Shown: positions 1,420 to 21,754 of the stretch, in pieces | Layout of the letters: every line of letters starts with the position of its first letter | Position numbering within the stretch: the first letter of the stretch is position 1 | Origin: an uncultured Anaerolineaceae bacterium | Lineage (GTDB): Bacteria > Planctomycetota > Phycisphaerae > FEN-1346 > JAACEH01 | Length of the DNA stretch: 64,000 nt | Reading direction: 5' to 3' | Assembly (NCBI GenBank): GCA_964500225.1 | Contig: CAZCOA010000004.1 | Coordinates: forward strand, 6,479-70,478 | The notes under the pieces: model-generated | Told to the model about the DNA's origin: nothing | The model's input: only the letters and a program-made list of their open reading frames with translations | The model's database searches: none | Made by a program: the position numbers and the translations under genes

Positions 1420-1443
1420 ACGGAATGACGACGGTCATTCCGT
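1420..1443. promoter_or_regulatory. Perfect 10-bp inverted repeat with 4-nt spacer (ACGGAATGAC-GACG-GTCATTCCGT), candidate operator or RNA hairpin in the 5' region of the metF-cluster
   Basis: Read directly from the sequence. It lies in the divergent intergenic region between the left-edge permease start (1069) and the first plus-strand gene (1442/1511). Confidence 0.4.
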
Positions 1444-1510
1444 GCGAGGTCCGACGGTGGATAAGTTGACGTCAGGCGAATTGAAACGACTAGGCGACAG
1501 CCGCATACTC

Positions 1511-3526: not shown

Positions 3527-3566
3527 GACCGCAGACGTGCCGACATCGAACACGTTGCGGCAGGAG

Positions 3567-5780: not shown

Positions 5781-7436
5781 TCAGCCTCCGCCGTCTCGCA
5801 GGATTCGCCGGAGGCTCAGAGCTCCGGTCGGGCAATGCTCGACGCATCGCCGGGCCGTACGACGAAGAGCCTCGCTCAGTTCCGAAGAGAACGGCGCCGC
5901 CGTGCGAACGCTGAAGCCGCGTCCGATGAACGTGAGGCCGAGCGTTTCGCGATCCTGTTCCGCAATACGCACGCAACGACCGCATTGGATACATTTGCCG
6001 GACTCGTACACGATGTCGGGATGTGTGGCGTCGCGCTCGAAGCGCCGGCGAGGACCATGGTACCGCGTCGGCGACGCGCCGTACCGGGCGGCCAGTTGAC
6101 GCAACGTACACGAATCGCGCTTGCCGCAGTCACAATCGAGGCAGCGTGCGGCCTCGGCACGGGCTTCCTGGTCGCCGCTCGTCCCGCCGGGCTTCGGATT
6201 TGCAGAATCACACATGCCGCGGGGACGCGGGTCGGCCTTCCCACGGAGCACTGCTATCTCGTCGGCGCTGAGACCATGCATGATGACATTGACATGCGAT
6301 GACTCACCAACAACCTGGGCGCCTCGCACGAACTGGTCAACGGCTATGGCTGCCCGGCGGCCACTCGCCACGGCATGAACACCGTAATTGGGACCGGTCA
6401 CGACATTTCCGGCGGCAAAAACGCCGGTACGGCCCGTGGCCAGCGTGGCGCGGTCCACCCGCACGCCTCGGCGGGATACCTGGAGGCCTAAGGTCCTCAA
6501 CAGCGAGAAATCGTACTGCACCTCACCGCCGGCCAGCCGTCCTTCGCCATAGATGGTCTTCTGGTCCATCGCGGTCTGCGTGCCGAGGGCTAGGATAACG
6601 GCCTGGTGCCGGACGAACAGTTCGTCGAGGCTGACGTCCCGTCCAAGACAGACGCCAGATTGCAAATCCACGCCGAGACGCAGAATTGCAGCGATTTCCG
6701 CGTCGATCACATCGTGGGGCAGTCGTTGTTCGTCGATGCCATAGCGGAAAAGCCCCCCGGCCTGCGTTTGTGCCTCGTACAACGTGCAGGCGTGCCCCAT
6801 CTGCCGCAGATAACATGCTGCGGAGAGGCCGGCGGGCCCAGCGCCGACTACGGCAACACTCTTGCCCGACTCGGCCGCACAGTCGGGTACATGCGGATCG
6901 CTGGAAGCGAGGTCCATGTCGGCCACCCAGCGGTGCAGATCGCGAATATTGACGGGCTGGTCCAGATCTTTGCGACGGCATGCTCGTTCGCAGAACCGCG
7001 GACACACGCGTCCTAGAGAGGCCGGCAGGGGGAGCCTCCGCCAGACAATGCTTGCTGCCCGCCGGGTGTCATCGGCCACAATCGCAGCGATAAAGTCGGC
7101 CACCTCCAGGTGGGCCGGGCATGCCAGCGAACATGGCGCCACGCAGTCGCCCGGGTGGTCGCTCAGGAGAAGCTCGATGGCCGTCCGGCGGGCTTGCAAC
7201 ACCACCTCGGATTGTGTCCGCACCACCATGCCCTCGGCCACAGGCATAGCGCACGACGGTTTTAGATCGGCCAGCCCATCGATCTCGACAACGCACATGA
7301 AGCAGGACGTGTGCGGCTCGAAACCGTCGAGATGACACAACGTTGGAATGTCGATCCCCAGACGGCGCGCGGCCTCCAGGATGGTGGTCCCCTGAGGCAC
7401 GTCGATGCTGCGATTATCGATGATCACTCTCGGCAC
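5781..7436 (-). CDS. 2Fe-2S ferredoxin (NuoG/HydA-N-terminal type) fused to GltD-like NAD(P)H:FAD oxidoreductase (StnC/NfnB-like subunit)
   Basis: N-terminus MPRVIIDNRSIDVPQGTTILEAARRLGIDIPTLCH...SCFMCVVE (plant-type 2Fe-2S). Then the GltD N-terminal Cys cluster (CVAPCSLACP...GRVCPRFCERAC). Then VAVVGAGPAGLSAACYL and GLFRYGI motifs. C-terminal extra Cys cluster (CLDCDCG...CIQCGRC). Last gene of the nuoE-nuoF-like operon. Confidence 0.8.
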   Translation of the reverse strand: MPRVIIDNRSIDVPQGTTILEAARRLGIDIPTLCHLDGFEPHTSCFMCVVEIDGLADLKPSCAMPVAEGMVVRTQSEVVLQARRTAIELLLSDHPGDCVAPCSLACPAHLEVADFIAAIVADDTRRAASIVWRRLPLPASLGRVCPRFCERACRRKDLDQPVNIRDLHRWVADMDLASSDPHVPDCAAESGKSVAVVGAGPAGLSAACYLRQMGHACTLYEAQTQAGGLFRYGIDEQRLPHDVIDAEIAAILRLGVDLQSGVCLGRDVSLDELFVRHQAVILALGTQTAMDQKTIYGEGRLAGGEVQYDFSLLRTLGLQVSRRGVRVDRATLATGRTGVFAAGNVVTGPNYGVHAVASGRRAAIAVDQFVRGAQVVGESSHVNVIMHGLSADEIAVLRGKADPRPRGMCDSANPKPGGTSGDQEARAEAARCLDCDCGKRDSCTLRQLAARYGASPTRYHGPRRRFERDATHPDIVYESGKCIQCGRCVRIAEQDRETLGLTFIGRGFSVRTAAPFSSELSEALRRTARRCVEHCPTGALSLRRILRDGGG

Positions 7437-7442
7437 TGGGGT

Positions 7443-9284
7443 TCACTCCACCTCGATGGCATCCGCCGGACAGCCGGCCCTACACATGCCGCAACGGATG
7501 CACTTCTCGGAATCGATGGTGTGTTGCTCGTACGGCGTCGGTTGAATGGCCTGGACCGGGCATCGCTGGGCACAGCGTGTGCAGCCGATGCATTTGTCCG
7601 TAATGCGGTAGGTGATAAGGGCCTTGCACTTGCGCGCCGGGCAACGGCCCCGGAGATGGGCCTCGTACTCGTCGCGGAAATAGCGCAGAGTCGTCAGCAC
7701 GGGGTTTGGCGCCGTCCGCCCCAAGCCACAGAGGCTGGTGTGTCGCACCTGGTCGCATAACATCTCTAGATCGTCGAGATCCTCGGGCCGCCCCTTGCCA
7801 TTGCATAGCCGTTCGAGGATGTCGAGCATGCGTCGCGTACCGACGCGGCAGAATGTGCACTTGCCGCACGACTCTTTCTCGGTGAACTCGAGGAAAAACC
7901 GTGCGATGTCCACCATACAGTCTGTGTCGTCGAGCACGACTAGGCCGCCGGAGCCCATGATAGCGCCCGTGCGGGTCAATGCCTCGTAGTCGATGGGCAG
8001 ATCGGCCATGGAGGCTGGAATGCAGCCGCCCGACGGCCCACCGATCTGGACCGCCTTGAAGCGGCGTCCCTCATGCACACCGCCGCCGATCGTCTCGACC
8101 ACCTCGCGAATGGTCATGCCCATGGGCACTTCGATGAGACCTCCGCGCCGGACGCGGCCGGCCAGGGCGAACACCTTGGTTCCTTTGCTGTGCTCCGTGC
8201 CAATGGAGGCGAAAGCGGCGGGACCATGGCGAAGGATCCACGGCACACAGGCGAATGTCTCGACGTTGTTGACAATCGTGGGCTTGCCCCACAAGCCGCT
8301 TTCGGCGGGATAGGGCGGACGGAATCGCGGCATGCCGCGGCGTCCCATAACGGAGGCTATCAGGGCCGTTTCCTCGCCGCACACAAACGCCCCGGCCCCT
8401 TCCATGACATGGAGCCGCAGTGAAAATCCCGTCCCCAAAACATCCTGCCCAAGATATCCGGTCCGCTCCGCTTGGGCGATGGCCTCGCGGAGCACGCGGA
8501 CGGCCAGCAGGTACTCGGCGCGGATGTAGATGTACCCTTCGGCGGCGCCGATGGCGTAGGCGGCAATGGCCATGCCTTCGATGACCCGCTGCGGGTCGCT
8601 TTCGAGAACGAGCCGATCCATGAAGGCTCCGGGGTCGCCTTCGTCGGCGTTGCAGACAACGTACCGTGTCGTGTCCGCCTGCCGTCGGGCTGCGGCCCAC
8701 TTCAGGCCGGTCGGATATCCTGCGCCACCCCGACCACGCAGCCCCGACTGCGTGACAACGTCGATCACCTGCTCGGGGGTCATATCCGTAAGGCACCGGC
8801 GCAGGGCCTCATATCCTCCACGTGCCAGGTACTCGGCGATGCACAGCGGATCGATCTGCCCGCAGTTCTCCAGAACGATGAACTTCTGTTTGCCTGTGGA
8901 CCCAGCTTCAGCGTCGGAATCGGAATGCGTCGCAAACGGCTTGATCGACGCCCACGCCTCGTCCGAAAGGAGCATGTCCGCCATGCGGCCGGCCCAGGCC
9001 ATGGCCCTACCGACCAGGCCCGTGGGCCTTGCGCAGTCGCGTACGATGCGTCGCGCCGCGGCCGGCCTGACACCTCCGAACACTTTGCGGCTTCCATCCG
9101 TCGAAACCACCTCGACAATAGGCTCTTGATGGCACAGGCCGCTGCACCCGACGGCTTTAACCGGAACATGGAGACCATGACGAAGGGCGGCATCGCGGAC
9201 GGCCTCATGCACGGACCGTCCGCCGCTGGCAATGCCGCAGGTGGCCAGGCCGACGCGAATCTCCTTGACGTTGTGATCGCTCAT
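7443..9284 (-). CDS. NuoF/HoxF/HydB-like NADH-binding FMN [4Fe-4S] subunit with C-terminal 2x[4Fe-4S] ferredoxin domain
   Basis: 613 aa. GLRGRGGAGYPTGLKW, VVCNADEGDPGAFMDR, ESCGKCTFCRVG and CIGCTRCAQRCP/CIRCGMCRAGCP motifs. These are classic 51-kDa subunit signatures. Confidence 0.9.
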   Translation of the reverse strand: MSDHNVKEIRVGLATCGIASGGRSVHEAVRDAALRHGLHVPVKAVGCSGLCHQEPIVEVVSTDGSRKVFGGVRPAAARRIVRDCARPTGLVGRAMAWAGRMADMLLSDEAWASIKPFATHSDSDAEAGSTGKQKFIVLENCGQIDPLCIAEYLARGGYEALRRCLTDMTPEQVIDVVTQSGLRGRGGAGYPTGLKWAAARRQADTTRYVVCNADEGDPGAFMDRLVLESDPQRVIEGMAIAAYAIGAAEGYIYIRAEYLLAVRVLREAIAQAERTGYLGQDVLGTGFSLRLHVMEGAGAFVCGEETALIASVMGRRGMPRFRPPYPAESGLWGKPTIVNNVETFACVPWILRHGPAAFASIGTEHSKGTKVFALAGRVRRGGLIEVPMGMTIREVVETIGGGVHEGRRFKAVQIGGPSGGCIPASMADLPIDYEALTRTGAIMGSGGLVVLDDTDCMVDIARFFLEFTEKESCGKCTFCRVGTRRMLDILERLCNGKGRPEDLDDLEMLCDQVRHTSLCGLGRTAPNPVLTTLRYFRDEYEAHLRGRCPARKCKALITYRITDKCIGCTRCAQRCPVQAIQPTPYEQHTIDSEKCIRCGMCRAGCPADAIEVE

Positions 9285-9790
9285 CGGCCCGACTCCTTGC
9301 GCACCTTGTCGATGATGATGGTGGCCTTGTGGGGCGTGAGTCTGCCGTAGGTCACATCGTCAATAGTCATACACGGCGCCAGGGAACAGCAGCCAAGGCA
9401 CGGAACCTTCTCGATGGTAAAGAGGCGTTCGGCGTCCGTGTCTTCGTGGTCGTCGTCGATGCCCAGGTGGCGGCGGATTGCCTCGGTAATCAGCGGCGCC
9501 CCGGCCACGTGGCAAGCGGTGCCGTGGCAGACGCGAACCCTATGTCGGCCGACGGGCTTGTGGCGGAACTGGCTGTAGAACGTCGAGACGCCGGCGATCT
9601 GAGCCGCCGTAATCTCCGTCGTGCGGCAGATATGCTCCAGGGCCTCTCTGGGCAAATAGTGGAAGTGCGCCTGAATCGCCTGGAGAATGGGAATCGCCGC
9701 ATCGGCGGTCGTTCCCGTCCGGCGCACGATATCGTCCACTACCGCCAGGTCGATCGGCTCGTCCACAGGTTGTCGCTTCGCCTTGGTCAT
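9281..9790 (-). CDS. NuoE/HoxE-like 2Fe-2S thioredoxin-fold subunit
   Basis: 169 aa. CHGTACHVAG ... CLGCCSLAPCM, the 24-kDa subunit Cys pattern. ATGA overlap with the downstream nuoF-like gene. Confidence 0.85.
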   Translation of the reverse strand: MTKAKRQPVDEPIDLAVVDDIVRRTGTTADAAIPILQAIQAHFHYLPREALEHICRTTEITAAQIAGVSTFYSQFRHKPVGRHRVRVCHGTACHVAGAPLITEAIRRHLGIDDDHEDTDAERLFTIEKVPCLGCCSLAPCMTIDDVTYGRLTPHKATIIIDKVRKESGR

Positions 9791-9802: not shown

Positions 9803-12010
9803 TCACTTGCCAATGCAGAACAGCTTCTTCTCTCCCCGAATGAGAATCCGGCCCTCGACAAACGCCGGTGAAGCAGATGTCTTCTCTCCCACCTTGCACG
9901 TGTCTTTGAGCGAAAAGCGGTCACCGAAGTCGAAGAGGAACATGTCGCCCTGGCGGCTGGGCAGGTACACGGTATTCCCAACCAGCGAAGGTGACGGGGT
10001 CATGGACGTCTGAAAATCGTGCTGCCAGAGAATCCGTCCGTCAACGGCCCCATAGCACACCACCGCACCGTAGCTGTGGACGTGAAGATAGTAACGCTCG
10101 TTGGCCAGCGGGCTGACGATATTGGGCAGATCGGTATCGTCCCTCCAGAGAACATGCGTCGCGGTCACGTCGCCACTCCCCCCTGCCCTGACGGCTGTCG
10201 CATGGCTGTACTCGTTGGCGACAAAGACGATGCCCCCTGCAACCACCGGACTCGGACCGACCTCGCCGTCGATGGCCGCAGCTCGCCAGAGTTCGGCCCC
10301 GGTGGCCGGCGCATAGGCGATGACGAGCGGCGCGGCAGCGGTGATCAACTCGTCTCGATCGCCGATCCGGGCGATAACGGGCGTGCTCCAGGCCGAGCGC
10401 ACCGGCCGCACGGTCTCCCAGATCACGCGCCCCGTAGAGGTATCCATGGCCAAAATGGACGACTTCTCCTCGCTCGGTTCGAGGCCCTGGTCAAGCTGGA
10501 GAATGACCATGTTCTTATACGGCACCAGGGACGACGCCAACCCATAGGGAGTGTCGGGCTCGCCGAGATTGATGGACCACTTTTGTTTTCCGTCGTGCCC
10601 GATGCCGGCAACGTCGGCGTTGGCAAAGGTCACATAGACGCCTCGGGCATCCACGGCCGGCGTTGGAGCGGCCAGGCCTGTGTCGGGAAACGCTTCCACC
10701 TTCTTGCCGGCCATGGGACTGTTGGGCGGAGACTTGACCTGTGTTCTCCATAGCACGCTGCCGTCGCGAAGACCAAAACAGTAAAGCCAGTTCCGGTCGG
10801 CGTCGGCGCTGGTCAGATAGACGTGATCGCCCCAGACCACAGGGGAACTGTTGCCGTCGGCGGGGAAGCCCTTCTCGGGGTCTCCGATGGGAACCGCCCA
10901 CAGAATGCCCTTGCCGGTCGTCGCATTCCATTCGGTGGGCCAGTCGCCTTCAGGAACAAGGCCGCAGCCCGTGGGTCCGCGGAATCGCGGCCACGTGAGC
11001 GTAACGGCGGAGGCGTCCTCCCCGGCGCCGTCGGCTCCCCCGGCATCGCTCGCCAGCCGCACCGTCGGGACGACAAGTGCCACGGCCACCGCTGCCGCGG
11101 CAAGCACGCCGGCGCCACAGGTGACGGCGTGCGAGTTTCTCTTGGCGACGACCTCCCAGTCCGGCTCTTCGGCGCCAGCGTCCAGCGGGGGACCGGGCGG
11201 TCTGTGGCCAAGCCACGCATACCCATGGAAACAGAGGACCGCAATTACCGCCCCCGCCAGGAGCATCCAACGCCCGACGGCCATCTGTCGGCTGCGAGCA
11301 AAAAAGTCTCGTCGAAGGGCGGCATCCTCGTTGCGAATGGCCTCCTTAACAAGCTCGTCATCGGGCGACTCGACAAGCTGCCGGTGAAGCTCGGCCATAC
11401 GGGGCGGATTCTGCCAGAGAAGATCATAAGCCGACGTGTAGTTGCGCAACATCGTCACCACAATGATTGCCGAGAACGCGGCGGCAAGAACCCCCAGGGA
11501 CATGAGCATGGAGCGTACCAGCGTCGCGGAAGGGCGCTGACGCATATTGATTGCCCATCGCCACAGACCGGATGTCGCGCGAGTCCACCAGGTCGCCCCT
11601 TCTGTCCACCTGACGTGTTCGCGCGGACACGACGCGAAACACCTTCCGCAACTGACGCATAAGCCCGATTCGATCTGGAATTCCTTGTGCATTGGTACCC
11701 GAGACATGGCCGCGGCCTTCAGCGTCGCCACCAGACCACACCCGAATCCCAGCAAAGCACACCCGATCCGGAACCGACGAACAATGCTCGCGGCCTCCCT
11801 TCGCAACAGTTCCTCGTCGCCGCCCTGCATGCGAAAGGCGCGAACCTCGAACGTGTCGGCGGCCTCAGGCGTTGCGGACCCCGGACCGAGCACCAGTTCG
11901 GCAAGGGCCACCGTGCGATGGCTGCGCGCCGGTACGTGGCCGACCATCCACCCCGCGGCGGCCAGCACCAGCGGCAGCACGGCCAGGAGAATTCGCAAGG
12001 CGGTCTTCAC
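9803..12010 (-). CDS. Membrane protein with predicted cytoplasmic-loop 4Fe-4S motif (CVSCGRCFASCP), about 5 TM helices, and a C-terminal periplasmic PQQ-like beta-propeller. Probable GTG start at 12010; the ORF-track ATG at 12121 would overlap napH-like by 108 nt
   Basis: Single ORF with no internal stop. N-terminal TM helix (TALRILLAVLPLVLAAAGW), further hydrophobic segments, and the CxxCxxCxxxCP motif between TM2 and TM3. The C-terminal about 400 aa contain PQQ/BamB-like repeats (WPRFRGPTGCGLVPEGDWPTEW..., ILWQHDF...). Confidence 0.6.
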   Translation of the reverse strand: MKTALRILLAVLPLVLAAAGWMVGHVPARSHRTVALAELVLGPGSATPEAADTFEVRAFRMQGGDEELLRREAASIVRRFRIGCALLGFGCGLVATLKAAAMSRVPMHKEFQIESGLCVSCGRCFASCPREHVRWTEGATWWTRATSGLWRWAINMRQRPSATLVRSMLMSLGVLAAAFSAIIVVTMLRNYTSAYDLLWQNPPRMAELHRQLVESPDDELVKEAIRNEDAALRRDFFARSRQMAVGRWMLLAGAVIAVLCFHGYAWLGHRPPGPPLDAGAEEPDWEVVAKRNSHAVTCGAGVLAAAAVAVALVVPTVRLASDAGGADGAGEDASAVTLTWPRFRGPTGCGLVPEGDWPTEWNATTGKGILWAVPIGDPEKGFPADGNSSPVVWGDHVYLTSADADRNWLYCFGLRDGSVLWRTQVKSPPNSPMAGKKVEAFPDTGLAAPTPAVDARGVYVTFANADVAGIGHDGKQKWSINLGEPDTPYGLASSLVPYKNMVILQLDQGLEPSEEKSSILAMDTSTGRVIWETVRPVRSAWSTPVIARIGDRDELITAAAPLVIAYAPATGAELWRAAAIDGEVGPSPVVAGGIVFVANEYSHATAVRAGGSGDVTATHVLWRDDTDLPNIVSPLANERYYLHVHSYGAVVCYGAVDGRILWQHDFQTSMTPSPSLVGNTVYLPSRQGDMFLFDFGDRFSLKDTCKVGEKTSASPAFVEGRILIRGEKKLFCIGK

Positions 12011-12012
12011 GA

Positions 12013-12870
12013 TCAGACGTCCTCCTCGGCCGTAGCCGGACGGATCGCGCCGAACGGACACGTGTCCTCGCAGAGGCGGCAATTCATGCACTCGTCGGGA
12101 GTGATGGCCACATGTTTCCACGCCACGCGGCTACACAGGCCGAGCAGAGCCCCGTACGGACACAGGAACCGGCAATAGGGACGCCCGACAAACATGGAGA
12201 GGATCAACAGGACGCCGCCAGAAATCATCACGGGCAGATTGCCGTCGAGCCGGAACAAACCGACGAAGGGGTCCCAACGGCACACGATAAAGACGCTGTC
12301 GGTGGCAGCCATGAGTATGGCCGCGCCGAGATAAACGAATGGGACAAGCCCCAGCATCGACTGGAGCCAGAGGGGCACGCGCACTGGGCGTATGAGAACC
12401 AGATCCTGGATGGCGCCGAGCGGGCAGACGCCGCCGCAAAATACCCGGCCAAAAAGCAGAGCAAAGACAATGGGTAGCACAAAGATGAGCACCACGGAAA
12501 CCGGCAGCACGTAATCGGCATCGGCCAGCGCGAGCGTTACGTTCTGAATCGAGCCGATCGGGCACACACAGCCGCCGAGGTAGAAGCCGAAGTAGACCAG
12601 CGACGCCACGGCCAGCCAGCGTATCGCCGCACGGCTTCTCAGACGCAGAGAGAACCAAGCGCTGAGGGCGAGCCCGGCTGCCAGCGCGCCCACGTGGACC
12701 ATATCCATCCATGGCGGCAATCGCAGCGGCCGCTGGTCAAGCTCAGGCAACTGGTGCCCCGAATAGAAGTCCGGTGGCGGAAACCGCTCAACGGCCCGCA
12801 CATCGGCAGCACACACAGCCGCCGCGACCAGCGTCAGGGCCACCCAAAGAAGTCGTCGGCGAGTGTTCAT
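12013..12870 (-). CDS. NapH/MauN-family membrane-bound [4Fe-4S] protein (quinol dehydrogenase-type polyferredoxin)
   Basis: 285 aa from internal ATG (MNTRRRLLWVALT...). Four hydrophobic helices. GGVCPLG/CPYGALLGLC and CMNCRLCEDTCP motifs. ATGA overlap with the upstream napG-like gene. Confidence 0.75.
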   Translation of the reverse strand: MNTRRRLLWVALTLVAAAVCAADVRAVERFPPPDFYSGHQLPELDQRPLRLPPWMDMVHVGALAAGLALSAWFSLRLRSRAAIRWLAVASLVYFGFYLGGCVCPIGSIQNVTLALADADYVLPVSVVLIFVLPIVFALLFGRVFCGGVCPLGAIQDLVLIRPVRVPLWLQSMLGLVPFVYLGAAILMAATDSVFIVCRWDPFVGLFRLDGNLPVMISGGVLLILSMFVGRPYCRFLCPYGALLGLCSRVAWKHVAITPDECMNCRLCEDTCPFGAIRPATAEEDV

Positions 12871-13454
12871 CCGCCCTCCTTCTGTCGTCCGAGGTGCTTG
12901 ACGACGTACGGACGATCGGTTGGTACGCGCATGAAGGCATCGGAGGGACACTGAGCCGCGATGGCGCACTGGTTGCAGTTGAGACAGCGGTCCTGACGCA
13001 CCTGGAGATAGAGCGATCCGTTGCCGTAGTCGGTGCAGCCTTTGGCGCAGATGCCGCAACCGGTGCACAGCGACTCGTCGATATGGTATTCGTAATACGG
13101 ATCCTCGACGAAGCGACGTATGATCGCGCCTGCCGGACACAGTTGGTTCTCAGCCCCGGTCTCCAGCTTGTTGGGCTCTGGATGGAAAAAGCCGGTGCAC
13201 AAGTCGCAGTAGCCGCACATCGCAAAATCGTGTACGCACTTGACCGCGGAGTTTTCGAGGACACATGCCGTGCGGCAGTTTCCACACTGGATACACTTGA
13301 AGGGATCGATCTGCCACACATAGCCCTTGGTGCGTGCCCTACCGCCGGCGGCAAGACCGACGCCGGCAATCCCGATGCCGAGCAGTCCGCGAGCAATACC
13401 GCCGAGGAACCCGCGGCGCGTCAGAGCCTGATTAGTCGTGCGTTCGTCGCTCAT
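12867..13454 (-). CDS. NapG/MauM-like periplasmic ferredoxin with twin-arginine signal, 4x[4Fe-4S]
   Basis: Tat motif TRRGFLGG. Four Cys clusters (CIQCGNCRTAC, CGYCDLC, CTGCGICAKGC, CLNCNQCAIAAQCP). Confidence 0.75.
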   Translation of the reverse strand: MSDERTTNQALTRRGFLGGIARGLLGIGIAGVGLAAGGRARTKGYVWQIDPFKCIQCGNCRTACVLENSAVKCVHDFAMCGYCDLCTGFFHPEPNKLETGAENQLCPAGAIIRRFVEDPYYEYHIDESLCTGCGICAKGCTDYGNGSLYLQVRQDRCLNCNQCAIAAQCPSDAFMRVPTDRPYVVKHLGRQKEGG

Positions 13455-13798
13455 CGCGTGGTCGTCCTGTCATTGGCGACGGCACTGTGGGCGCGCCGCC
13501 CCTGCTCGCACAGGGCATCCTTCGGCTCAGCCTCTGCATGCCGCGATATGCGGACCGCCGTCACCAGACCGAGGCCCCTGCTCCGCTGCTGCTCTGCCTC
13601 GGGCAAGCGGCACGACTCGAAGGCCCGGCAACGAGCACACGGCGCAGTCGTTAGTCCACCACCCAATTGCCGCCGCCGGGAGGGCGCGACCAGCCGCACC
13701 GCCGCAGCTCCGACCAGGGCCAGCCCCGACCAACGGACCGCACTGGCCAACACGTCTCGCCTCGTCAGCCTCCGACAAATGCCGTGGGAATCCGTCAT
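13451..13798 (-). CDS. Small Tat-signal Cys-containing hypothetical protein
   Basis: 115 aa. RRLTRRDVLASAV Tat-like motif. CARCRAFESC cluster. ATGA-type overlaps with both neighbours suggest it is a genuine co-translated ORF, but composition is low-complexity. Confidence 0.4.
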   Translation of the reverse strand: MTDSHGICRRLTRRDVLASAVRWSGLALVGAAAVRLVAPSRRRQLGGGLTTAPCARCRAFESCRLPEAEQQRSRGLGLVTAVRISRHAEAEPKDALCEQGRRAHSAVANDRTTTR

Positions 13799-14763
13799 CT
13801 TTCTTCCTCATCACGTTCGAACACAAGCACCTCGTTCTGCGCCGGATCGACGACGAATATTCGCCCGCTTGCGTCCACAGCCAGGTCCATGCCGGCGCTG
13901 GCAGGGGTAAAGAACTCCGTGCCGATGATCCCCAGAACCCGTCCTTGGCGGTCGCTGACCTTGACACGGGGCGACCGGCCCTTTTCCGCGGTGACAACGC
14001 AGCAGTCAGCCGTCAGCGCAAGATTCGTCGGGTTGCAGCATCCGGGGAATCGGTTCGGCGCCATCCCCTGCCCGCCCCAGTATTCAAGACGCACGCCGCC
14101 GCGGCTGAATCGCTCGACGCGCCAGTAACCCGGATTCGTGATCATCACGTCACCGCCCGGTTCCACTGCCACATCCATGTACGGACTGGGGCAGAGAATT
14201 TGCGGCCGTCCCGTCGTCTCGTCGCGACCGGCCACACTGTCCACCAGGTCGCCGCTCACGTCGAAATGGTGCAAGGCTCGATTCCCCGCGTCTGCAAGCC
14301 ACACATCCACGCCATGCACAGCGATGCCCGTGACACATCCCAACTCTCCATGCCCGTCTCCGGGACGGCCCCAGGAGCATGTGAGCGTCCCGTCGGAATC
14401 GAAAACGTGGACGCACGTTTTCTCGGTCGCAAAGACGCGTCCCTCGGCCCCCACGGCCACCGCCGTGACCGGGCCCGGCGTCGGCATGTGACGGATCTGC
14501 ACCCACGCGGCGTCATACACCGTCACGCCGCCGGCCGAGGCCAGGTAGATGCGGCCATCATCGCCAAGGGCAATGCCCCTGAGGCCCTCGACGGCCGGCG
14601 TCTGCTTCAGAACCAGGCGGTATGTCCTCGGCATGGCCGTCGCCGCAGACTCGTCCCCCCTGCCGTGACCGACCGACGATGGGGCGTCCTTGTCAGCACA
14701 GCCGCACAGGCACATGGCGACAAAAACCTGGATGATCGTCCGTCCGTTCGTCATGGCTATCAC
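13795..14763 (-). CDS. NHL-repeat beta-propeller lipoprotein
   Basis: 322 aa. N-terminal signal with Cys (VFVAMCLCGCAD). Repeated motifs (GIALGDDGRIYLA, GIAVHGVDVWLAD, PMDVAVEPGGDVMITN, GMDLAVDASGRIFVVD) typical of NHL repeats. Confidence 0.65.
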   Translation of the reverse strand: MIAMTNGRTIIQVFVAMCLCGCADKDAPSSVGHGRGDESAATAMPRTYRLVLKQTPAVEGLRGIALGDDGRIYLASAGGVTVYDAAWVQIRHMPTPGPVTAVAVGAEGRVFATEKTCVHVFDSDGTLTCSWGRPGDGHGELGCVTGIAVHGVDVWLADAGNRALHHFDVSGDLVDSVAGRDETTGRPQILCPSPYMDVAVEPGGDVMITNPGYWRVERFSRGGVRLEYWGGQGMAPNRFPGCCNPTNLALTADCCVVTAEKGRSPRVKVSDRQGRVLGIIGTEFFTPASAGMDLAVDASGRIFVVDPAQNEVLVFERDEEER

Positions 14764-14785: not shown

Positions 14786-16198
14786 TCATGGAGCCACTCG
14801 CACGCATACCATCTCCGTCAAATCGCGGCAATAGATGCAGCCGTCGGCATACGCGATGGGACCCCAGGCGTCGTGTCCATTGAGAATCTTCGCGCGGCCG
14901 AGCTCCTTGTAACCTTCTGTGGTGGCTTCCACCATGACAAGTTCGCCGCTCTGTCCGCCGACGACGAACAACACTCCGTCGATGAGAATAAACGGGCCGA
15001 GCTCGAATTGTACCTTCGGACCGCTCGACCAGACCAACTCGCCGGCCAGGTCCAAACATGCCAGTTGTCCGCTCTCGGTCACGCCGTATAGGTGGTCCTT
15101 ATAAAGCACGGGCGTTTGTTGCTCGCAACTGAACACTTGCGGCTTAATGCGAAACACCTGTCCCACGTTGAAGCGGTCGCCCTCGGTCCAGACACGGACC
15201 ATCTGGGAGCCGACGCCGTAGCTGCCCGTGAAGAACAGACGGTCGGGTGCGACCACCACAGGCGACGGGCTGTTGGCAATTTTGATGACCCACTCAGGCC
15301 ATTTCCACAGGACGCGACCGTCGCCGGCAGCCACCGACACCACGCCGCCGCCCGAGCAATAGACGTATTGACGCACGCCGCCGAAATCGCAGACCATCAC
15401 CGACGACTCGGTCATTGTCCAATGGTCCGGGTTGGGGGTTCGCCAAACGATCCTGCCGGTGGCCAGCTCAACGGCCATCAGCAGCGGCCCATCTTTGGAC
15501 GGATCGCCGCCGGGAGCGATGATGGCGAGGTTCCCGTCAATGAGCGGACACTGCCCTGTGTACCATCGCGGCACCGTGGTTCCAAACTCCTTCACCAAGT
15601 CGAAGCCCCACACCTTCTCGCCCGTGTCGGTCCGCAGGCACGTGACGTGACACTTGGGCCCCATGGCCACGAGGTACTCGTCCGTGACGGCCGCCACAGT
15701 GCGAGACATGCCGTGGTTGCGTTTGACGGTGACGGAGTAGGAATACCGCCAGATCTCCTGGCCGTCGGCCGCCGAGAGGCAACGGATGGCGTCCTCGCGT
15801 TTGTCGCGGTCGTAGTCCACGACGAAGACCCGGCCCTTGTGAACGGCGGCGCCGGCATGGCCCTCGCCGACGGCAATGCGCCACAGCACCGGCGGCCCGC
15901 TCTCGGGCCACGAGCGCGCCACCACAGCCCCCTGCGGCACAATGCCATTGCGGTCCGGACCGCGAAACTGCGGCCACGAGCCATCCAGAGGCGCAGGCCG
16001 CCCGGTGCCACGAACAAGCGTTCCGGGATTAGCCGGAGGCGGCTCGGTCTCGCCGTCCGGCTTGGGCCGCTCGTCCAGCCCGGGCAGGCGCACGGACACC
16101 GTGACGTTCCGCGGCATCTGATACCAGTGCGCGAGCACCGCCCCGGCAGCAACGGCCGCGACCACAGGTGTCAGAATTACCAATACGCGGACCTTCAC
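14786..16198 (-). CDS. PQQ-like beta-propeller repeat protein with signal anchor (GTG start chosen at V25 of the track ORF)
   Basis: Hydrophobic N-terminus (VLVILTPVVAAVAAGAVLA). Repeated W-containing propeller blades (WPQFRGPDRNG, VLWRIAVGEG, EIWRYSY, KVWGFDL, RIVWRTP, RVLWKWP, ELVWSSGP). Confidence 0.65.
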   Translation of the reverse strand: MKVRVLVILTPVVAAVAAGAVLAHWYQMPRNVTVSVRLPGLDERPKPDGETEPPPANPGTLVRGTGRPAPLDGSWPQFRGPDRNGIVPQGAVVARSWPESGPPVLWRIAVGEGHAGAAVHKGRVFVVDYDRDKREDAIRCLSAADGQEIWRYSYSVTVKRNHGMSRTVAAVTDEYLVAMGPKCHVTCLRTDTGEKVWGFDLVKEFGTTVPRWYTGQCPLIDGNLAIIAPGGDPSKDGPLLMAVELATGRIVWRTPNPDHWTMTESSVMVCDFGGVRQYVYCSGGGVVSVAAGDGRVLWKWPEWVIKIANSPSPVVVAPDRLFFTGSYGVGSQMVRVWTEGDRFNVGQVFRIKPQVFSCEQQTPVLYKDHLYGVTESGQLACLDLAGELVWSSGPKVQFELGPFILIDGVLFVVGGQSGELVMVEATTEGYKELGRAKILNGHDAWGPIAYADGCIYCRDLTEMVCVRVAP

Positions 16199-16331
16199 GC
16201 CGGCACTCCCCGTCTGCACGAGTTGAACGGATGAATTATAGACTATGGAGCACCGCGCGGATAGGCGCAAACGCCTCGCCGGAGCGTCTTCGCCGACCGC
16301 CGGCCCTCACAGAGTAAACGCGATGGAGTAG

Positions 16332-17601: not shown

Positions 17602-20600
17602 TCACTCTGAACGTATTGCGCCCAGCAGGTCGGGCCCCACGGCTCGCTGCGTCACACCGACACAAGCCGCAATGGCCGCGGCCATGATGCCGCCCATTGT
17701 ACCGGCGAGTTGGAGCCACGGCACATCGGCCTTCGCCTGGATCATGTGCGGCGCGGCAGCCAGGAGGCCCGCCACACTGCCGATGGCCAGACCGGCGGCA
17801 ATCAGTATCACGGTCTCGGCCGACACCAGTCGTACGACCTGCCTTTGCGTGAATCCCAGCGCAAGCATCAGGGCCAGTTCGCCTCGCCGCTCCACGATGT
17901 TTCTGGCCAGCACGGTCGCGACAGCGAATGTGCCAAGAACCAACCCCAGCCCACTGAGGGCCTGAAAGGCCGCCAGGTACGTATTCTGCACGCCGGCATA
18001 GGCCGCCAGTACATCGGCTGTGCGACGAACGTCAACACCGGCGTCCTCCAGACCCTCGCGGAGTGCGTCCATCACCTGCGTCTGCCGCTCAGGAACCGTC
18101 TCCACAAGGAAACGCCGGTACCCGCCTCCGTCGCCGAACAGCCGCACCAAGTTTCCCTCAGACATCAGCAATTCGCTTTGCCACAGGCTTCCCCGGAGCA
18201 GACCGACGATACGCAGAGTCACGGGACCATGAGCGCCGGCCACCGTGATCGTCCCGTTGAGCCCCGACTTGAGAATCCATCGGACGCTCGCTTCGTCGCC
18301 AACGACCGGCACGCAGCCGTTGTCGAGCGTGACGTCCAGAAGCCGCCAGGGGTTCCGCTCATCGTGCATCGGGAGGGTTTGCGAGAACGCAAACCCGCCA
18401 CGTTCAATCAGAGCAGGCGGCACACCCACGATTCTCGGCGACTGCGGCTGCTGTAGGTTCAGGCAACTGGCATCGTCGCCATCATTCACGCGGAAGGATA
18501 GGATGGTGGCCCCTTGGAAGGCGCCCTCGTCGCCGAGTCCTGCCGCCTGCCTGCCGGCCGCCGTGCCAAGGTCCACGTGGATCGGCAACTCGCAGTCGGC
18601 CATGATCGCAAAGCCGCCCGCCCCGCCGTTGCGAGAAAACGTGTCCCACTGTGTTGGGTTGATCCGGTTGGCCGCTACCGTAACAAGGGTAAAGGCGGCG
18701 CACGCCAACAGGGCGGTTGTCAGGACACTGCGGGTTCGGCGGCGTCTGGCCCCGTGCAGGACCAGACTCTTCATGGAAAGACTTTGGCGGGCACGGGGGC
18801 GCGACGGGCGTTCCCCGGTGAGCACGGCTGCCATGGCCGCCAGCATCGCGACAAGCATCAGCCCACCGATCAAAAAGAACGCAGTCGCCGGCTTCATGGC
18901 GTTGCCGACAATGGAAGCGCCCAGCACGGCTGCCGCCGCGGCTGTGGCCAGCGACGCAATGAGCGTCGCCCCACGGCGTCCTTGTCGCAGATCCTCGACA
19001 GTGTGAAGCGATCGCCACCCGGCGAGGAGCACCACGGCCGTCTTGCGGCGAAGCAGCCACAGGGCCCATGCGACGGCCGCCATGGCAATGATCAGCCCCA
19101 CGGCGGCGCCGTTCACCAGACTGGACGACGACACGTACAAGTCCAACGTAAACGGCCCCAGCAGGCCGACCCATCGCGTCTTCAGCGTCCACAGAATTCC
19201 CGCGGCGTAGGCCACCGCCAGCGGAATGCCCGCGAGCACTGCAATAGCAGCATGAACCATCCCCTCGGCCAGAAACGACCGTGCCACGGCGCCAGGTGAA
19301 AATCCGATGGCCAGCATGATGCCGGCATCGCGGGCCCGCATCTCGACCGAGAGCCGCAGCAGTAACCCCACCAGCATCGCGGCGGCCAGAACAAGAAAAC
19401 TGCTCAACCCCAAAAAGAGGGATGCAAAATCGCTTGCCCCTTCGGCCGCTCGCAGCGCCTCGGCGCGCACGGGCCGAAACGTAAGGCCGACGTCCTGCGG
19501 CTTCAATGCGTTTCGCAAGGCCGCCGAATAGGTCTCCACGGACGGAACGCCCCCTTGCGGCCCATCGGCGGCAATCCTCACCGAGGTAACCCACGGGGAC
19601 TCGACTTGCGCCGCGCGGCGCCACAGGTCCTGCGCCGTCTGAGGGGAGACGAACGCTTTGGGCGCGGCTCTGTGCGCCTGCCAGTAGGCCTCGTCTTTGG
19701 GTCGAATACGCCCAAGGTCCAACGGAAACGGTGGCTTCCACTGCCTCATCGACGTAGCGTCGGTGATGCCAGGGAACTGGGGAATCAGCTCATCTTGGGC
19801 CGCAGCACCGACCATCGCAACGATCCCGCGGACGATGAATCGTCGTGAGTCGGTGCTGAGCGTGGCATCGGCGCCGATGCGATAATAGTCAACGGCCACA
19901 GTATCCCCCACCTTGGCGCCCAGATCGGCCGCAGCCCATGTATTGAGCAGGATGTCGTCGGTTCCCAGATTCAAGTCAACCGGCGTACCGTCGTCCTGCA
20001 CAAGGACGTCATGTCCTGCCTCCGCAGCATCCGCCACAGCGGCAATGGTGGAGTACGGTATGCCGTTCTCGCCGGATTCGCCGTCGACCTTGGTGATCGT
20101 ATTGGCGAGGTAGATCGACACCCGCGCGGCCCGATAGCCGCAGGCGTGTGCCGCCTCGCCCGCAGCGGCAACCTGACGCGACGAAAGCACCGTGTTAAGG
20201 CTTTCCACCGAAATCACGCGACCATGCGCCTGCTGCACGAGGCGTATCCCGCAGTCTTCAGGCGTGACGGCGTCGGCGAGCATAGTATTCAGTCGCCGCA
20301 CTTCTTCCTCGTCTCCGTGGCCGCTCCTCGCGTTGACAAGCAGCACATTGGCCTGCCCTGCTCGCCCGATGTGCCGTGCGAACCAGTCGTAGGCGACATA
20401 CACATTTCTCGGCCGCGGTCGGTCGCTTCGCAGCGAAAAACCGCCGAGTCCCTCGTCGGGCACGATCCTCGCGATCACCAGGCTCACCCGTTCGACCGTA
20501 TCGTTCAGGCTGCGACGACCGAACAGACTGGTCGAAGGAGCAGTCGATGCTCGCGCGAGATTCACAATAAGCGTGTCTCCGGTTCGCAGGGACAATTCGT

Positions 20601-21051
20601 TCGCAAGCGTCTGGTTCACCGCGGCATGTCGCCCGTCAAGAGCCGGCGCAGGCCCTGGCCCGAGCATCGGCGCGTCGGAAGGGTTCACTGCCCAGACCGA
20701 CACGTGGGGCAGTCGTACCGATGACGTCGGCGTGCTTGCAGCGGCATCCACTGCCAGAACGGCAGCAACGTCGCCGAATGCCGCCGTGAAGCCTTGCTGT
20801 GAGGCAAGGTCCTTTGCCAGGGCCGACCTGAAGAAGCCCGGCGCGGTCAGCGCAAAGTCGGTGCGCCCGAGACGTCGCAAAGCCAGGCTGCGCAGGCTGC
20901 CGTTGAACGAGTCGCCAACAAGAAGGGACCCGGCGACTACCGCCACGCCCACGGCCGCGCCGGCGACAACTGCGGCGTGGGTGCGCCGATAGTACCATAG
21001 GCTGCGAAGGACAAACCGCGCCAGGTTCACGCACAGACCTCCACACGACAT
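17602..21051 (-). CDS. ABC transporter permease, MacB/LolCE family, two FtsX domains in one about 1149-aa polypeptide
   Basis: Start chosen at the internal ATG (MSCGGLCVNLARFVLRSLWYY...) immediately after the ATPase stop. Multiple hydrophobic helix bundles separated by large soluble domains, as in FtsX-type permeases. Confidence 0.75.
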   Translation of the reverse strand: MSCGGLCVNLARFVLRSLWYYRRTHAAVVAGAAVGVAVVAGSLLVGDSFNGSLRSLALRRLGRTDFALTAPGFFRSALAKDLASQQGFTAAFGDVAAVLAVDAAASTPTSSVRLPHVSVWAVNPSDAPMLGPGPAPALDGRHAAVNQTLANELSLRTGDTLIVNLARASTAPSTSLFGRRSLNDTVERVSLVIARIVPDEGLGGFSLRSDRPRPRNVYVAYDWFARHIGRAGQANVLLVNARSGHGDEEEVRRLNTMLADAVTPEDCGIRLVQQAHGRVISVESLNTVLSSRQVAAAGEAAHACGYRAARVSIYLANTITKVDGESGENGIPYSTIAAVADAAEAGHDVLVQDDGTPVDLNLGTDDILLNTWAAADLGAKVGDTVAVDYYRIGADATLSTDSRRFIVRGIVAMVGAAAQDELIPQFPGITDATSMRQWKPPFPLDLGRIRPKDEAYWQAHRAAPKAFVSPQTAQDLWRRAAQVESPWVTSVRIAADGPQGGVPSVETYSAALRNALKPQDVGLTFRPVRAEALRAAEGASDFASLFLGLSSFLVLAAAMLVGLLLRLSVEMRARDAGIMLAIGFSPGAVARSFLAEGMVHAAIAVLAGIPLAVAYAAGILWTLKTRWVGLLGPFTLDLYVSSSSLVNGAAVGLIIAMAAVAWALWLLRRKTAVVLLAGWRSLHTVEDLRQGRRGATLIASLATAAAAAVLGASIVGNAMKPATAFFLIGGLMLVAMLAAMAAVLTGERPSRPRARQSLSMKSLVLHGARRRRTRSVLTTALLACAAFTLVTVAANRINPTQWDTFSRNGGAGGFAIMADCELPIHVDLGTAAGRQAAGLGDEGAFQGATILSFRVNDGDDASCLNLQQPQSPRIVGVPPALIERGGFAFSQTLPMHDERNPWRLLDVTLDNGCVPVVGDEASVRWILKSGLNGTITVAGAHGPVTLRIVGLLRGSLWQSELLMSEGNLVRLFGDGGGYRRFLVETVPERQTQVMDALREGLEDAGVDVRRTADVLAAYAGVQNTYLAAFQALSGLGLVLGTFAVATVLARNIVERRGELALMLALGFTQRQVVRLVSAETVILIAAGLAIGSVAGLLAAAPHMIQAKADVPWLQLAGTMGGIMAAAIAACVGVTQRAVGPDLLGAIRSE

Positions 21052-21052
21052 G

Positions 21053-21754
21053 TCACGGCTGGCGGACGGGGGATAGACAGCCGTCGCGAAGCTCCAGGCA
21101 TCGTGAGAAACGTCTTGCCAGTTCGAGATTGTGGGTGACAACAATCAGCATCACATGCCGCTCGGCGGCCACCTCGCAGAACAGATCCGCCACCGTCGCC
21201 GCGGTGGCGCGATCCAGATTGCCCGTCGGCTCGTCGCACAAAAGCAGTGGCGGATTGTTGACCAAGGCCCGCGCCACGGCCACACGCTGCCGCTCGCCGC
21301 CCGACAGCCACTGCGGGAAGTCGTTCTCTCGCCCTGCCAGGCCGACGCGAGCCAGCAGGTCGGCAGCCCGCCGCACTCCGTCCACGGCGTCGTTCGAAGC
21401 CACCGTCGGAAGGGCCACATTCTCGATGACGGTACACTGCGGGAGCAGATGGTGATCCTGAAACACGAAGCCCACCCTTTTGCGTCGAAACTCAGCCAGG
21501 CGGTCGTCCTCAAGGACGGCAACGTCCACGTCGCCCAATTGCACGGTTCCCGACGTCGGCCGGTCCAGCGAGCCAATGATATTGAGCAGCGTGCTCTTGC
21601 CGCAGCCGGATGCCCCAACAATGGCAACGGTCTCGCCGGGCTCCACACGCAGCTCCACGCCTTTCAGGACGCTATGCTGGCCGGCCGGCGACGAGTACGT
21701 CTTACACAATCGGCTGACCTTTAGCGCAACCGCTTCCGATGCTGCGTTTGCCAT
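21053..21754 (-). CDS. ABC transporter ATP-binding protein (MacB/LolD type)
   Basis: Walker A GASGCGKST, signature LSGGERQRVAVARAL, Walker B LLLCDEPTGNLD, H-loop VTHN. Confidence 0.9.
   Translation of the reverse strand: MANAASEAVALKVSRLCKTYSSPAGQHSVLKGVELRVEPGETVAIVGASGCGKSTLLNIIGSLDRPTSGTVQLGDVDVAVLEDDRLAEFRRKRVGFVFQDHHLLPQCTVIENVALPTVASNDAVDGVRRAADLLARVGLAGRENDFPQWLSGGERQRVAVARALVNNPPLLLCDEPTGNLDRATAATVADLFCEVAAERHVMLIVVTHNLELARRFSRCLELRDGCLSPVRQP

Follow-up and report, generated by a model that had tools for sequence, protein, structure and literature searches.

A BamB-like propeller protein carrying the second half-motif of a NapH-type ferredoxin domain, encoded in a conserved gene cluster of Planctomycetota and other phyla

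The 64,000-nucleotide stretch of contig CAZCOA010000004.1 analyzed here (hereafter the window; assembly GCA_964500225.1, an uncultured bacterium placed by its GTDB lineage in the Phycisphaerae) holds on its minus strand a gene for a 735-residue protein that couples an iron–sulfur (Fe–S) cysteine motif and a set of predicted membrane helices to a C-terminal β-propeller. An open reading frame (ORF) scan yields a stop-free frame from 9803 to 12121, within which the best start is a GTG at 12010, 2 nucleotides past the TGA of the upstream ORF and with a GAGGAGG ribosome-binding site ~9 nucleotides before it; the same 735-residue product is made by independent gene callers on other assemblies. A first-pass annotation, drawn from the letters of the window, had placed this gene between napH-like and nuoE-like neighbors, and the profile matches bear this out (Fer4_5, twice, on the upstream ORF; Pfam 2Fe-2S_thioredx, 6e-45, on the ORF that begins 12 nucleotides downstream). 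Searches of NCBIfam and Pfam gave nothing above cut-off for the membrane part of the 735-residue protein, nor for its 285-residue NapH-like partner as a family.

We considered whether the gene could be an artefact, that is, a frameshift, mis-assembly or decaying pseudogene joining two genes, given that the frame is extendable 37 codons upstream, where it overlaps the NapH-like ORF in another frame. This reading is refuted by the junction DNA, protein sequence and 285|735 split, all of which are identical on contigs from three different samples, and we regard the chance that it is correct as negligible. Orthologues at 56–86% identity align over their full length, are called at 732–739 residues (like the window protein) and keep the functional residues invariant; one of them, at 58% identity (locus L003 of the survey described below), has its break at the same position with an ATGA overlap. 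The start is served by a good ribosome-binding site, and simple read-through is ruled out because a second in-frame TGA follows the stop of the NapH-like partner. The gene is accordingly taken as intact, as first annotated, with no missed stop or frameshift behind it.

Hydropathy (Kyte–Doolittle) marks five hydrophobic segments (residues 1–25, 82–103, 164–191, 242–269 and 293–322), and an AlphaFold2 model built on a 31-sequence alignment (mean predicted local distance difference test score (pLDDT) 82) contains long helices at residues 2–23, 66–103, 161–194, 219–268 and 285–313. Hydropathy and two AlphaFold2 models together support five predicted transmembrane (TM) helices, and the uninterrupted ORF, the hydropathy and the model agree with the earlier proposal that a single polypeptide carries the Fe–S cysteine motif, five helices and a propeller. 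Conservation extends beyond the helices: V34, L36, A37, A58 and F59 are conserved in the loop between helices 1 and 2, helix 2 carries a glycine pair (G88 conserved at 100%, G92 at 85%), and P216, R226, D229 and R233 in the loop between helices 3 and 4 are conserved at 97–100%.

The cysteine motif, CVSCGRCFASCP, follows the hairpin formed by helices 1 and 2. Its C118, C121, C124, C128 and P129 are 100% conserved in 77 homologues (median identity 35%), and we read the motif, the CxxCxxCxxxCP loop of the first-pass annotation, as no chance match. Homology searching places it in a larger context. Two single-chain homologues (P0008, 1018 residues; P0010, 1066 residues) span the whole of the window protein and also carry Fer4_5 domains, while NapH-like homologues of ~435 residues match just its first ~135 residues. 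When the upstream ORF and the 735-residue protein are placed end to end, the concatenate is colinear with P0008 and P0010 (MAFFT alignment), and NapH-like proteins with two ferredoxin half-motifs around a hairpin line up with its first ~435 residues. The aligned order is a NapH-like core with CX3CP motifs, half-motif a (CMNCRLCEDTCP, at the C-terminus of the window's NapH-like ORF), a helix, a ~57-residue loop, a second helix, and half-motif b, whose consensus CxxCGRCFxxCPxE is the motif of the window protein. The gene boundary in the window falls directly after half-motif a, and the hairpin separating the half-motifs comprises two membrane helices in ~115 residues.

We then deleted the hairpin in silico and rescored the partner joined to the window protein's motif against dicluster ferredoxin and NapH models. 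Against the Fer4_7 dicluster model the two halves score 26.2 (a) and 22.6 bits (b) when unspliced, and 51.2 bits as one stretch covering model positions 2–50 of 52 once spliced; for Fer4_9 the corresponding values are 20.3 and 23.5 bits, both below the cut-off of 27, and 40.8 bits. The NCBIfam NapH/MauN model behaves likewise, rising from 42.5 bits over model positions 66–215 to 65.4 bits over positions 66–252 of 255. Because excision of the hairpin restores both the dicluster match and the match to the C-terminal part of NapH, the motif of the window protein is best described as the counterpart of NapH's second ferredoxin motif. Half-motifs a and b jointly match the dicluster models but sit on two polypeptides, and the motif regions are modeled at pLDDT <50.

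The distribution of this arrangement was examined at two levels. A search with residues 1–340 against 1.84 billion representative sequences returned 598 relatives, and among the best 150 of these the same two building blocks recur in different gene contexts: the hairpin-plus-motif unit is found as stand-alone proteins of 130–170 residues, as the C-terminus of ~420–450-residue proteins, mid-chain in ~990–1136-residue proteins and at the N-terminus of ~720–735-residue proteins, and the three-helix unit (residues ~165–320) forms the N-terminus of ~560–700-residue propeller proteins. A scan of one genome per species, with a query made from a 5-sequence alignment, found a relative in at least 525 species-level genomes. 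Most of these are Planctomycetota (Pirellulales, Planctomycetales, Phycisphaerae, Sedimentisphaerales, Thermoguttaceae and Brocadiia), and other carriers include Verrucomicrobiota, Omnitrophota, Hydrogenedentota, Poribacteria and Sumerlaeia.

We classed 87 related loci by blastp of the window's modules against stop-to-stop segments. In 68 loci the NapH-like core, hairpin and Fe–S motif form one protein and the propeller, with or without its three helices, a second; four loci are fully fused (L001, L002 and L011, which are one protein on overlapping contigs, and L004), two are split three ways (L008 and L018), and one (L003) has the window's pattern, with the core separate and the hairpin, motif, three helices and propeller on one chain. 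The common form is thus a propeller protein with three helices and no Fe–S motif. The idea that a fused, Fe–S-bearing anchor defines the architecture does not survive this comparison, since 68 of the 87 loci keep the motif on the NapH-like protein; judged from these sequences, the window polypeptide is a rare gene-boundary variant of a widespread module. A listed relative, P0045 (721 residues, 35% identity), hints that the window's arrangement occurs in one further lineage or more. Three break patterns and full fusions within a constant gene order constitute Rosetta-stone evidence for a single complex.

These comparisons also bear on how the motif could hold a cluster. In the clostridial-type dicluster fold each cluster takes three cysteines from one motif and the fourth from the other, and a single CxxCxxCxxxCP gives only three ligands to one cluster of a ferredoxin fold. 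A stand-alone cluster on the window protein is unlikely because its one motif supplies three ligands and the other cysteines of the membrane part are not conserved (C84 in 2, C91 in 7 and C260 in 6 of 19 homologues). Were the motif nonetheless to bind its own [4Fe-4S] cluster, or to act as a redox or signal sensor, the protein would be a self-contained transmembrane device. The intact motif in a cytoplasmic loop, the weak matches to single-motif Fer4 models (17–20 bits) and the existence of stand-alone hairpin-plus-motif proteins fit such a device; against it, every Fer4-type match on the protein alone is below its Pfam cut-off, alignment pairs the motif with NapH's second one and with chains bearing both motifs, it is missing from the propeller protein at most loci (the 68 above), and no signaling output domain is present. 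We consider a self-contained device improbable, and the first-pass view of a self-contained 4Fe-4S ferredoxin gives way to that of half a two-cluster domain, the remainder of which, CMNCRLCEDTCP, lies at the end of the upstream ORF. Since the dicluster fold exchanges the fourth cysteine, both clusters would be ligated jointly by the 285- and 735-residue chains.

The most consistent topology has the N-terminus and the cysteine loop in the cytoplasm and the propeller in the periplasm, as had been predicted. NapH [4Fe-4S] clusters are cytoplasmic and NapG is exported by the twin-arginine translocation (Tat) system (PMC5449189). Half-motifs a and b would lie on one side of the membrane because two helices separate them, and the propeller on the opposite side because three more helices follow. 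The cysteine loop is the only strongly Lys/Arg-rich loop (~8–18 Lys plus Arg against 3–8 Asp plus Glu in most of 19 homologues; 9–18 against 3–6 in close orthologues), and the cluster's paralogous propellers and its NHL-repeat protein carry signal anchors or a lipobox-like sequence, which fits a periplasmic site for such domains. No conserved twin-arginine motif stands ahead of helix 5 (the window has AKRNSHAV, 26 of 82 orthologues have RR, and most read ARWxV); Tat-dependent export of the propeller, as in the polytopic polyferredoxin discussed below, was rejected on this ground.

The C-terminal domain (residues 340–735) is modeled at pLDDT >90 and matches Pfam PQQ_2 at 8.8e-24. Foldseek comparison of a fused homologue's model with the PDB returns BamB first (E ~1e-17, TM-score ~0.75 normalized to BamB, 17–20% identity), followed by pyrroloquinoline quinone (PQQ) alcohol dehydrogenases, tetrathionate hydrolase and YxaL. 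The residues conserved at ≥85% in 86 orthologues are the WPxFRGP start, the Trp, Gly and Ser-Pro positions of eight blades (with eight conserved S/A-P motifs on inner strands), a few charged residues and three cysteines; no conserved His, metal-ligand set or PQQ-type signature is found among them, and a metal center like CuZ of NosZ was rejected for want of a conserved His. The three cysteines (C411, C652 and C732), the only conserved ones in the propeller, lie one each in three different blades and are probably structural.

A catalytic propeller, whether PQQ-type or another dehydrogenase, would pass substrate electrons inward through the Fe–S motif to NAD(P)+, and both the weak contact with Pfam and NCBIfam PQQ-family models and the PQQ alcohol dehydrogenases and tetrathionate hydrolase among the fold matches could be taken to favor it. 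The scores speak otherwise: PQQ_enz_alc_DH (TIGR03075) reaches 25.3 bits against a cut-off of 480, and PF01011 has no match on the protein. The domain is of BamB size (~396 residues) with BamB as its best structural match, the ≥85% conserved set holds none of the residues typical of PQQ enzymes (a His, a vicinal Cys-Cys pair, a catalytic acid pattern or acidic triad), and the whole membrane separates the propeller from the Fe–S domain, with no cofactor in helices 3–5. On model scores, domain size and the absence of conserved active-site residues we rejected a PQQ enzyme, and any catalytic propeller seems highly improbable. Nor is the protein a BamB, since it shares the eight-bladed fold yet opens with a five-helix membrane domain in place of a lipoprotein signal, is encoded in a redox cluster rather than in a setting that points to the β-barrel assembly machinery (BAM) complex, and scores 50.5 bits on the BamB equivalog model (TIGR03300) against a cut-off of 285. 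The "PQQ-like" label thus holds at the level of fold, the nearest relative being the cofactor-less BamB, and fails at the level of PQQ enzymes, none of whose models is reached. From its sequence we read the propeller as a non-catalytic, cofactor-less, BamB-like interaction domain.

The gene order around this protein is near-invariant across the phyla of the 87 loci, comprising ~12 genes that correspond to 21754 through 5781 of the window: (PQQ_2), an ATP-binding cassette (ABC) ATPase, an FtsX permease (~1100–1180 residues), a PQQ_2 propeller, an NHL propeller, a small ORF, a NapG-like protein, the NapH-like/hairpin/three-helix-propeller unit, NuoE, NuoF, a GltD-like protein and (more PQQ_2). 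It therefore brings together an ABC/FtsX pair, four propellers, NapG- and NapH-like proteins and an NfnABC-type flavoprotein, and packing around the window gene is tight (gaps of 2 and 12 nucleotides, overlaps of 4). The three downstream genes correspond in composition to NfnABC (Bfu): a NuoF-like protein (FMN, NADH) whose C-terminus is a dicluster domain, a NuoE-like [2Fe-2S] protein, and a GltD-like protein (FAD, NADPH) with N-terminal [2Fe-2S] and Fe–S domains. The NuoF-like protein matches NfnB of 9n5u at 758 bits over its full length (and scores similarly against bifurcating hydrogenase subunits and the 9bov and 8oh5 entries), and the GltD-like protein matches the N-terminal third of NfnA at 355 bits; on these scores we assign the three to a cytoplasmic module of Bfu/NfnABC type. 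The NfnA-like subunit is the shorter one (551 versus 963 residues), and in several relatives NuoE and NuoF are fused into a protein of ~775–783 residues. Genes outside 21754–5781 (prenyltransferase-like, DUF116-polyprenyl synthetase, cupin and methylene-tetrahydrofolate reductase (MTHFR) genes) are not conserved in 80 related loci.

Comparison with characterized systems locates both the familiar and the unusual parts. The NapH/NosR/RdhC superfamily is recognized by at least four membrane segments and two conserved CX3CP motifs (PMC5928378). The partner ORF has ~six hydrophobic segments and two such motifs (FCGGVCP at C145 and YCRFLCP at C233), and the 735-residue protein carries none of these features. 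NapH/MauN and NosR models match the partner well below their cut-offs; for NapH/MauN (TIGR02163) the scores given above, unspliced and spliced, compare with a cut-off of 213, and for PRK09477 the score is 59.2 against 234. As in NapH/NapG (and MauN/MauM and NosH/NosG), a polytopic protein with two CX3CP motifs and a cytoplasmic two-cluster ferredoxin domain, here a predicted one, stands beside a Tat-exported four-cluster ferredoxin, and the cysteine motif of the window protein corresponds to the second motif of NapH. Unlike in those systems, a hairpin interrupts the ferredoxin domain, which here is divided between two polypeptides; the chain gains three helices and a propeller; neither a nitrate reductase nor a cytochrome is encoded nearby; and the cluster has an NfnABC-type module in place of any visible reliance on quinol.

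A natural fusion of NapH through a fifth TM helix to NapG is the MLMS-1 polytopic polyferredoxin (PFD), which is inserted by the Sec and Tat systems together and whose parts occur fused or as adjacent genes (PMC5449189). PFD resembles the present system in that a NapH module runs through an extra TM helix into a periplasmic domain on one chain. The two differ in what is appended: PFD adds the Fe–S protein NapG behind a last helix with a twin-arginine motif, whereas the window protein adds a cofactor-less propeller, free of Cys motifs, after three helices, and has KR at the position of the twin arginine, so it does not belong with the dual Sec–Tat PFD proteins. A further precedent for a fused periplasmic domain is CcoG/FixG, the cupric reductase. 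This polytopic protein of Fer4_5 type has its [4Fe-4S] clusters on the cytoplasmic side, and a helix then leads to a C-terminal domain in the periplasm; that domain is immunoglobulin-like (FixG_C), and the ferredoxin motifs are contiguous on one chain. Pfam gives no FixG_C match in the window protein.

Propellers are found in NirS, ExaA and NosZ. The literature ties NapH-like clusters to NirS and ExaA, and NapH-like proteins in general act as modular transmembrane electron carriers, with some other extracytosolic systems recruiting NuoF-like NAD(P)H modules (PMC8238504). NosR, NirI and RdhC (PceC) share with the present system a membrane module that is a modular carrier serving a periplasmic enzyme (PMC8238504, PMC5928378). 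They differ in having a periplasmic flavin mononucleotide (FMN) domain and a separate propeller enzyme, whereas the present cluster encodes neither an FMN domain nor ApbE, and the propeller is covalently attached and looks non-catalytic. BamB, the best structural match, is an eight-bladed PQQ_2-type propeller of similar size without a cofactor, yet it is a lipoprotein of the outer-membrane BAM complex, in contrast to a five-helix inner-membrane anchor in a redox operon. Known members of the NfnABC/Bfu group, to which the three downstream genes are alike (9n5u; HydABC; 9bov and 8oh5, deposited as molybdopterin oxidoreductase or formate dehydrogenase chains), are cytoplasmic and use soluble ferredoxin; in this cluster no ferredoxin-like partner other than the membrane-bound split domain is encoded close by. 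By sequence, none of the curated NapH, NosR, BamB or PQQ-dehydrogenase families includes the window protein.

We propose for the 735-residue protein the role of a membrane subunit in a multi-subunit complex that moves electrons across the membrane and has a NapH/NosR-type module with a split ferredoxin at its center, and put the probability of this reading, including its wiring, at roughly 0.6. The 285- and 735-residue proteins would assemble so as to bring half-motifs a and b together into a single two-cluster domain on the cytoplasmic side, the hairpin packing against the NapH-like helices (helix 2 of this hairpin carries the conserved G88xxxG92). The shared domain would replace soluble ferredoxin for the adjacent NfnABC-type (NuoE/NuoF/GltD-like) flavoprotein, and NAD(P)H-derived electrons, possibly of low potential, would pass from the NapH-like protein to the NapG-like one and from there reach an acceptor in the periplasm; the cluster probably carries NAD(P)H electrons across the membrane in this way. 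Candidate end-points are the vicinal cysteine pair of the NHL lipoprotein and the small CxxCx5C protein. The propeller might serve as a docking platform or scaffold for exported partners, namely the NapG-like four-cluster ferredoxin, the small Cys protein, the NHL lipoprotein and the two paralogous propellers. The earlier suggestion of membership in a transmembrane redox system fits the NapH/NapG-like and NfnABC-type neighbors, and of the "built-in" transmembrane redox or signaling architecture that accompanied it, this part stands; nothing shows electrons or signals passing through the propeller.

Several observations weigh against this proposal. Canonical NapH is taken to be a quinol dehydrogenase. 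Both Cys-motif regions have pLDDT <50 in both models, and pairing of the half-motifs is not seen in any three-dimensional model. The propeller has no recognizable redox site and its docking role is a guess. The loops between helices 1 and 2 and between helices 3 and 4 (~57 residues each and helical in the models) are near neutral in charge, so the positive-inside rule alone fails to place them and the topology rests on NapH homology and helix count. At one locus (L007) a three-helix propeller protein and a fused NuoEF occur with neither NapH nor NapG in the neighborhood, the presence of the ABC/FtsX pair is left unexplained, and the NfnABC-like genes could be merely adjacent, forming a functionally separate unit, though they are adjacent in 68 of 80 genomes.

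The most serious competitor follows from the first of these points. In a NapGH-style quinol dehydrogenase, the NapH-like membrane core would take electrons from the quinone pool and pass them to the NapG-like protein. The cytoplasmic clusters, among them the half contributed by the window protein, would serve assembly or redox balancing, and the NfnABC-like genes would encode a separate, neighboring enzyme. In its favor, the partner is homologous to NapH, NosR and RdhC and has both CX3CP motifs; the literature agrees, in that NapH oxidizes quinol and passes electrons to NapG (PMC5928378, PMC5449189). Working against it, NuoE-, NuoF- and GltD-like genes directly follow the propeller gene in 68, 66 and 59 of 80 loci from several phyla (counts limited by contig ends), gene spacing is tight with NuoE and NuoF fused at some loci, NapH model scores fall far below the family cut-offs, and a cytoplasmic dicluster with invariant cysteines suggests a working point of electron entry or exit on that side. 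We therefore hold a quinol route to be unlikely, albeit with a real chance of being right.

A bolder form of the transmembrane-complex proposal would make the window protein and its partner the membrane core of an undescribed redox complex, widespread in Planctomycetota and several other phyla, in which a flavin-based NfnABC-type, possibly bifurcating, module is wired to a NapH/NapG-type conduit through a hairpin-interrupted, splittable ferredoxin, low-potential electrons are exported, and an assembly of four periplasmic propellers uses them for an as yet unrecognized chemistry. Its candidate components would include the NHL protein with its vicinal Cys pair, the small CxxCx5C protein and a MacB/FtsX-type ABC machine; we offer it tentatively, as something we would not expect to hold in full.

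Literature searches found no description of the fusion or of the cluster, and since the literature covered was incomplete this is absence of evidence only. Features that appear new from the sequences are the hairpin within the ferredoxin domain, that domain's natural split between polypeptides, the covalent attachment of the propeller, and the conserved presence of an NfnABC-type module, four propellers and an ABC/FtsX pair as partners. The single gene proves less exceptional than at first sight, and its system is widespread, uncharacterized and mechanistically interesting. NapH/NosR-type proteins are the least understood inner-membrane electron route in bacteria, and natural split and fused variants map which of their parts must sit together. 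If the proposed wiring is true, it would represent a new way of bringing NAD(P)H-derived electrons into the periplasm, one that needs no quinones, cytochromes or flavinylated domains, and would give a function to some of the many orphan PQQ-like/BamB-like propellers of these phyla.

Table 1. Features of the 735-residue protein and of the surrounding gene cluster, with positions in the window.
Feature	Positions	Strand	Basis
Window gene, 735 residues: hairpin, second ferredoxin half-motif, three further TM helices, BamB-like propeller	9803..12010	-	ORF and start; homologues; same product in 3 assemblies
TM helix 1, residues 2-23, first hairpin arm, predicted in to out	11942..12007	-	Hydropathy 2.19; helix 2-23 at pLDDT 78-90; colinear with the helix after half-motif a in fused and ~435-residue homologues
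Loop 1-2, residues 24-81, small helices, putatively periplasmic; conserved TVxLAE and AF(R)	11768..11941	-	AlphaFold2 helices; near-neutral charge
TM helix 2, residues 82-103, predicted out to in; conserved G88xxxG92	11702..11767	-	Hydropathy; AlphaFold2 model
CVSCGRCFASCP, residues 118-129, second half-motif (b) of NapH-type 2x[4Fe-4S] domain, predicted cytoplasmic	11624..11659	-	Translation; conservation; splicing test
TM helix 3, residues 164-191	11438..11521	-	Hydropathy 2.32; AlphaFold2 helix 161-194; equals first helix of the common three-TM propeller proteins
Loop 3-4, residues 192-241, helical, putatively periplasmic	11288..11437	-	Conservation; AlphaFold2 model
TM helix 4, residues 242-268	11207..11287	-	Hydropathy; AlphaFold2 model
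TM helix 5, residues 293-315, Ala-rich, no preceding twin-arginine motif	11066..11134	-	Hydropathy; AlphaFold2 model
Eight-bladed BamB-like propeller, residues 340-735, from WPRFRGP	9806..10993	-	PQQ_2; pLDDT; Foldseek; conservation
NapH-like partner, 285 residues, ~six hydrophobic segments, CX3CP motif twice, ferredoxin half-motif a but not b	12013..12870	-	Fer4_5 x2, 6e-15
CMNCRLCEDTCP, first ferredoxin half-motif (a), C-terminus of NapH-like ORF	12055..12090	-	Translation; alignment; splicing test
NapG-like Tat-signal polyferredoxin, 195 residues, TRRGFLGG, 16-17 conserved Cys	12867..13454	-	ORF; Pfam; conservation
Small ORF, 115 residues, RR motif, one TM helix, CxxCx5C-LPEA	13451..13798	-	ORF; same features at same position in L001, L003, L004 and L005
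NHL-repeat lipoprotein, vicinal Cys pair G-C242-C243-N-P	13795..14763	-	Profile models; conservation; lipobox
Membrane-anchored PQQ_2/BamB-like propeller, paralogue of the window protein's propeller	14786..16270	-	Pfam; locus survey
Second PQQ_2/BamB-like propeller, 419 residues	16332..17591	-	Domain models
FtsX-type permease (~1180 residues) and ABC ATPase (233 residues), upstream cluster end	17602..21754	-	Domain models; synteny
NuoE-like, NuoF-like and Fer2_4/Fer4_20/GltD-like genes, NfnABC (Bfu)-type cytoplasmic module, downstream cluster end	5781..9790	-	Pfam; PDB comparison

The remaining members of the cluster present features of their own. The NapH-like partner has a conserved GC(V/I)CP(I/V)G sequence (CxCP at C101) where its second core helix ends. 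Behind its N-terminal helix, at the place of the FMN domain in NosR and RdhC, a periplasmic RFPPPDF is conserved as well. A search for solved relatives of the NapH-like core gave only generic Fer4 matches such as NuoI/TYKY, with no membrane-core structure found. The small ORF always lies between the NHL and NapG-like genes (79–133 residues; counterparts at 9199–9438 in L001, 8157–8468 in L003, 5802–6203 in L004 and 9155–9421 in L005), has no Pfam or NCBIfam family match, and is poorly conserved in sequence and constant in form: an RR-containing N-terminus, one hydrophobic helix, CxxCx5C and LP(E/Q)A. The FPG-C242-C243-NP segment of the NHL lipoprotein is invariant in 65 orthologues, which also conserve W131, W229, E217, E260-K261, R266 and K268; the pair may be a redox-active vicinal disulfide that ends the system on the periplasmic side. 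The FtsX-type permease is very large and matches MacB_PCD in relatives.

At L007 (10001–14087) the three-helix propeller protein is directly followed by the fused NuoEF, and genes for NapH-like, NapG-like or NHL proteins are absent within 10 kb. Either the cluster has decayed here, or the arrangement hints that the propeller protein and NuoEF are directly connected. Elsewhere in the window, positions 1442–5166 of the plus strand carry a gene for an HdrA-like flavoprotein with a fused MvhD/FlpD domain and, after it, MetV-like (DUF5981) and MTHFR genes, a set that looks like an acetogen-type methylene-tetrahydrofolate reductase module and suggests an anaerobic lifestyle of the organism. Finally, a single minus-strand ORF at 22808–24865 combines DUF116 with a polyprenyl synthetase domain and lies beside a prenyltransferase/squalene-cyclase-repeat protein (21800–22777), neither being conserved beside the cluster in relatives.

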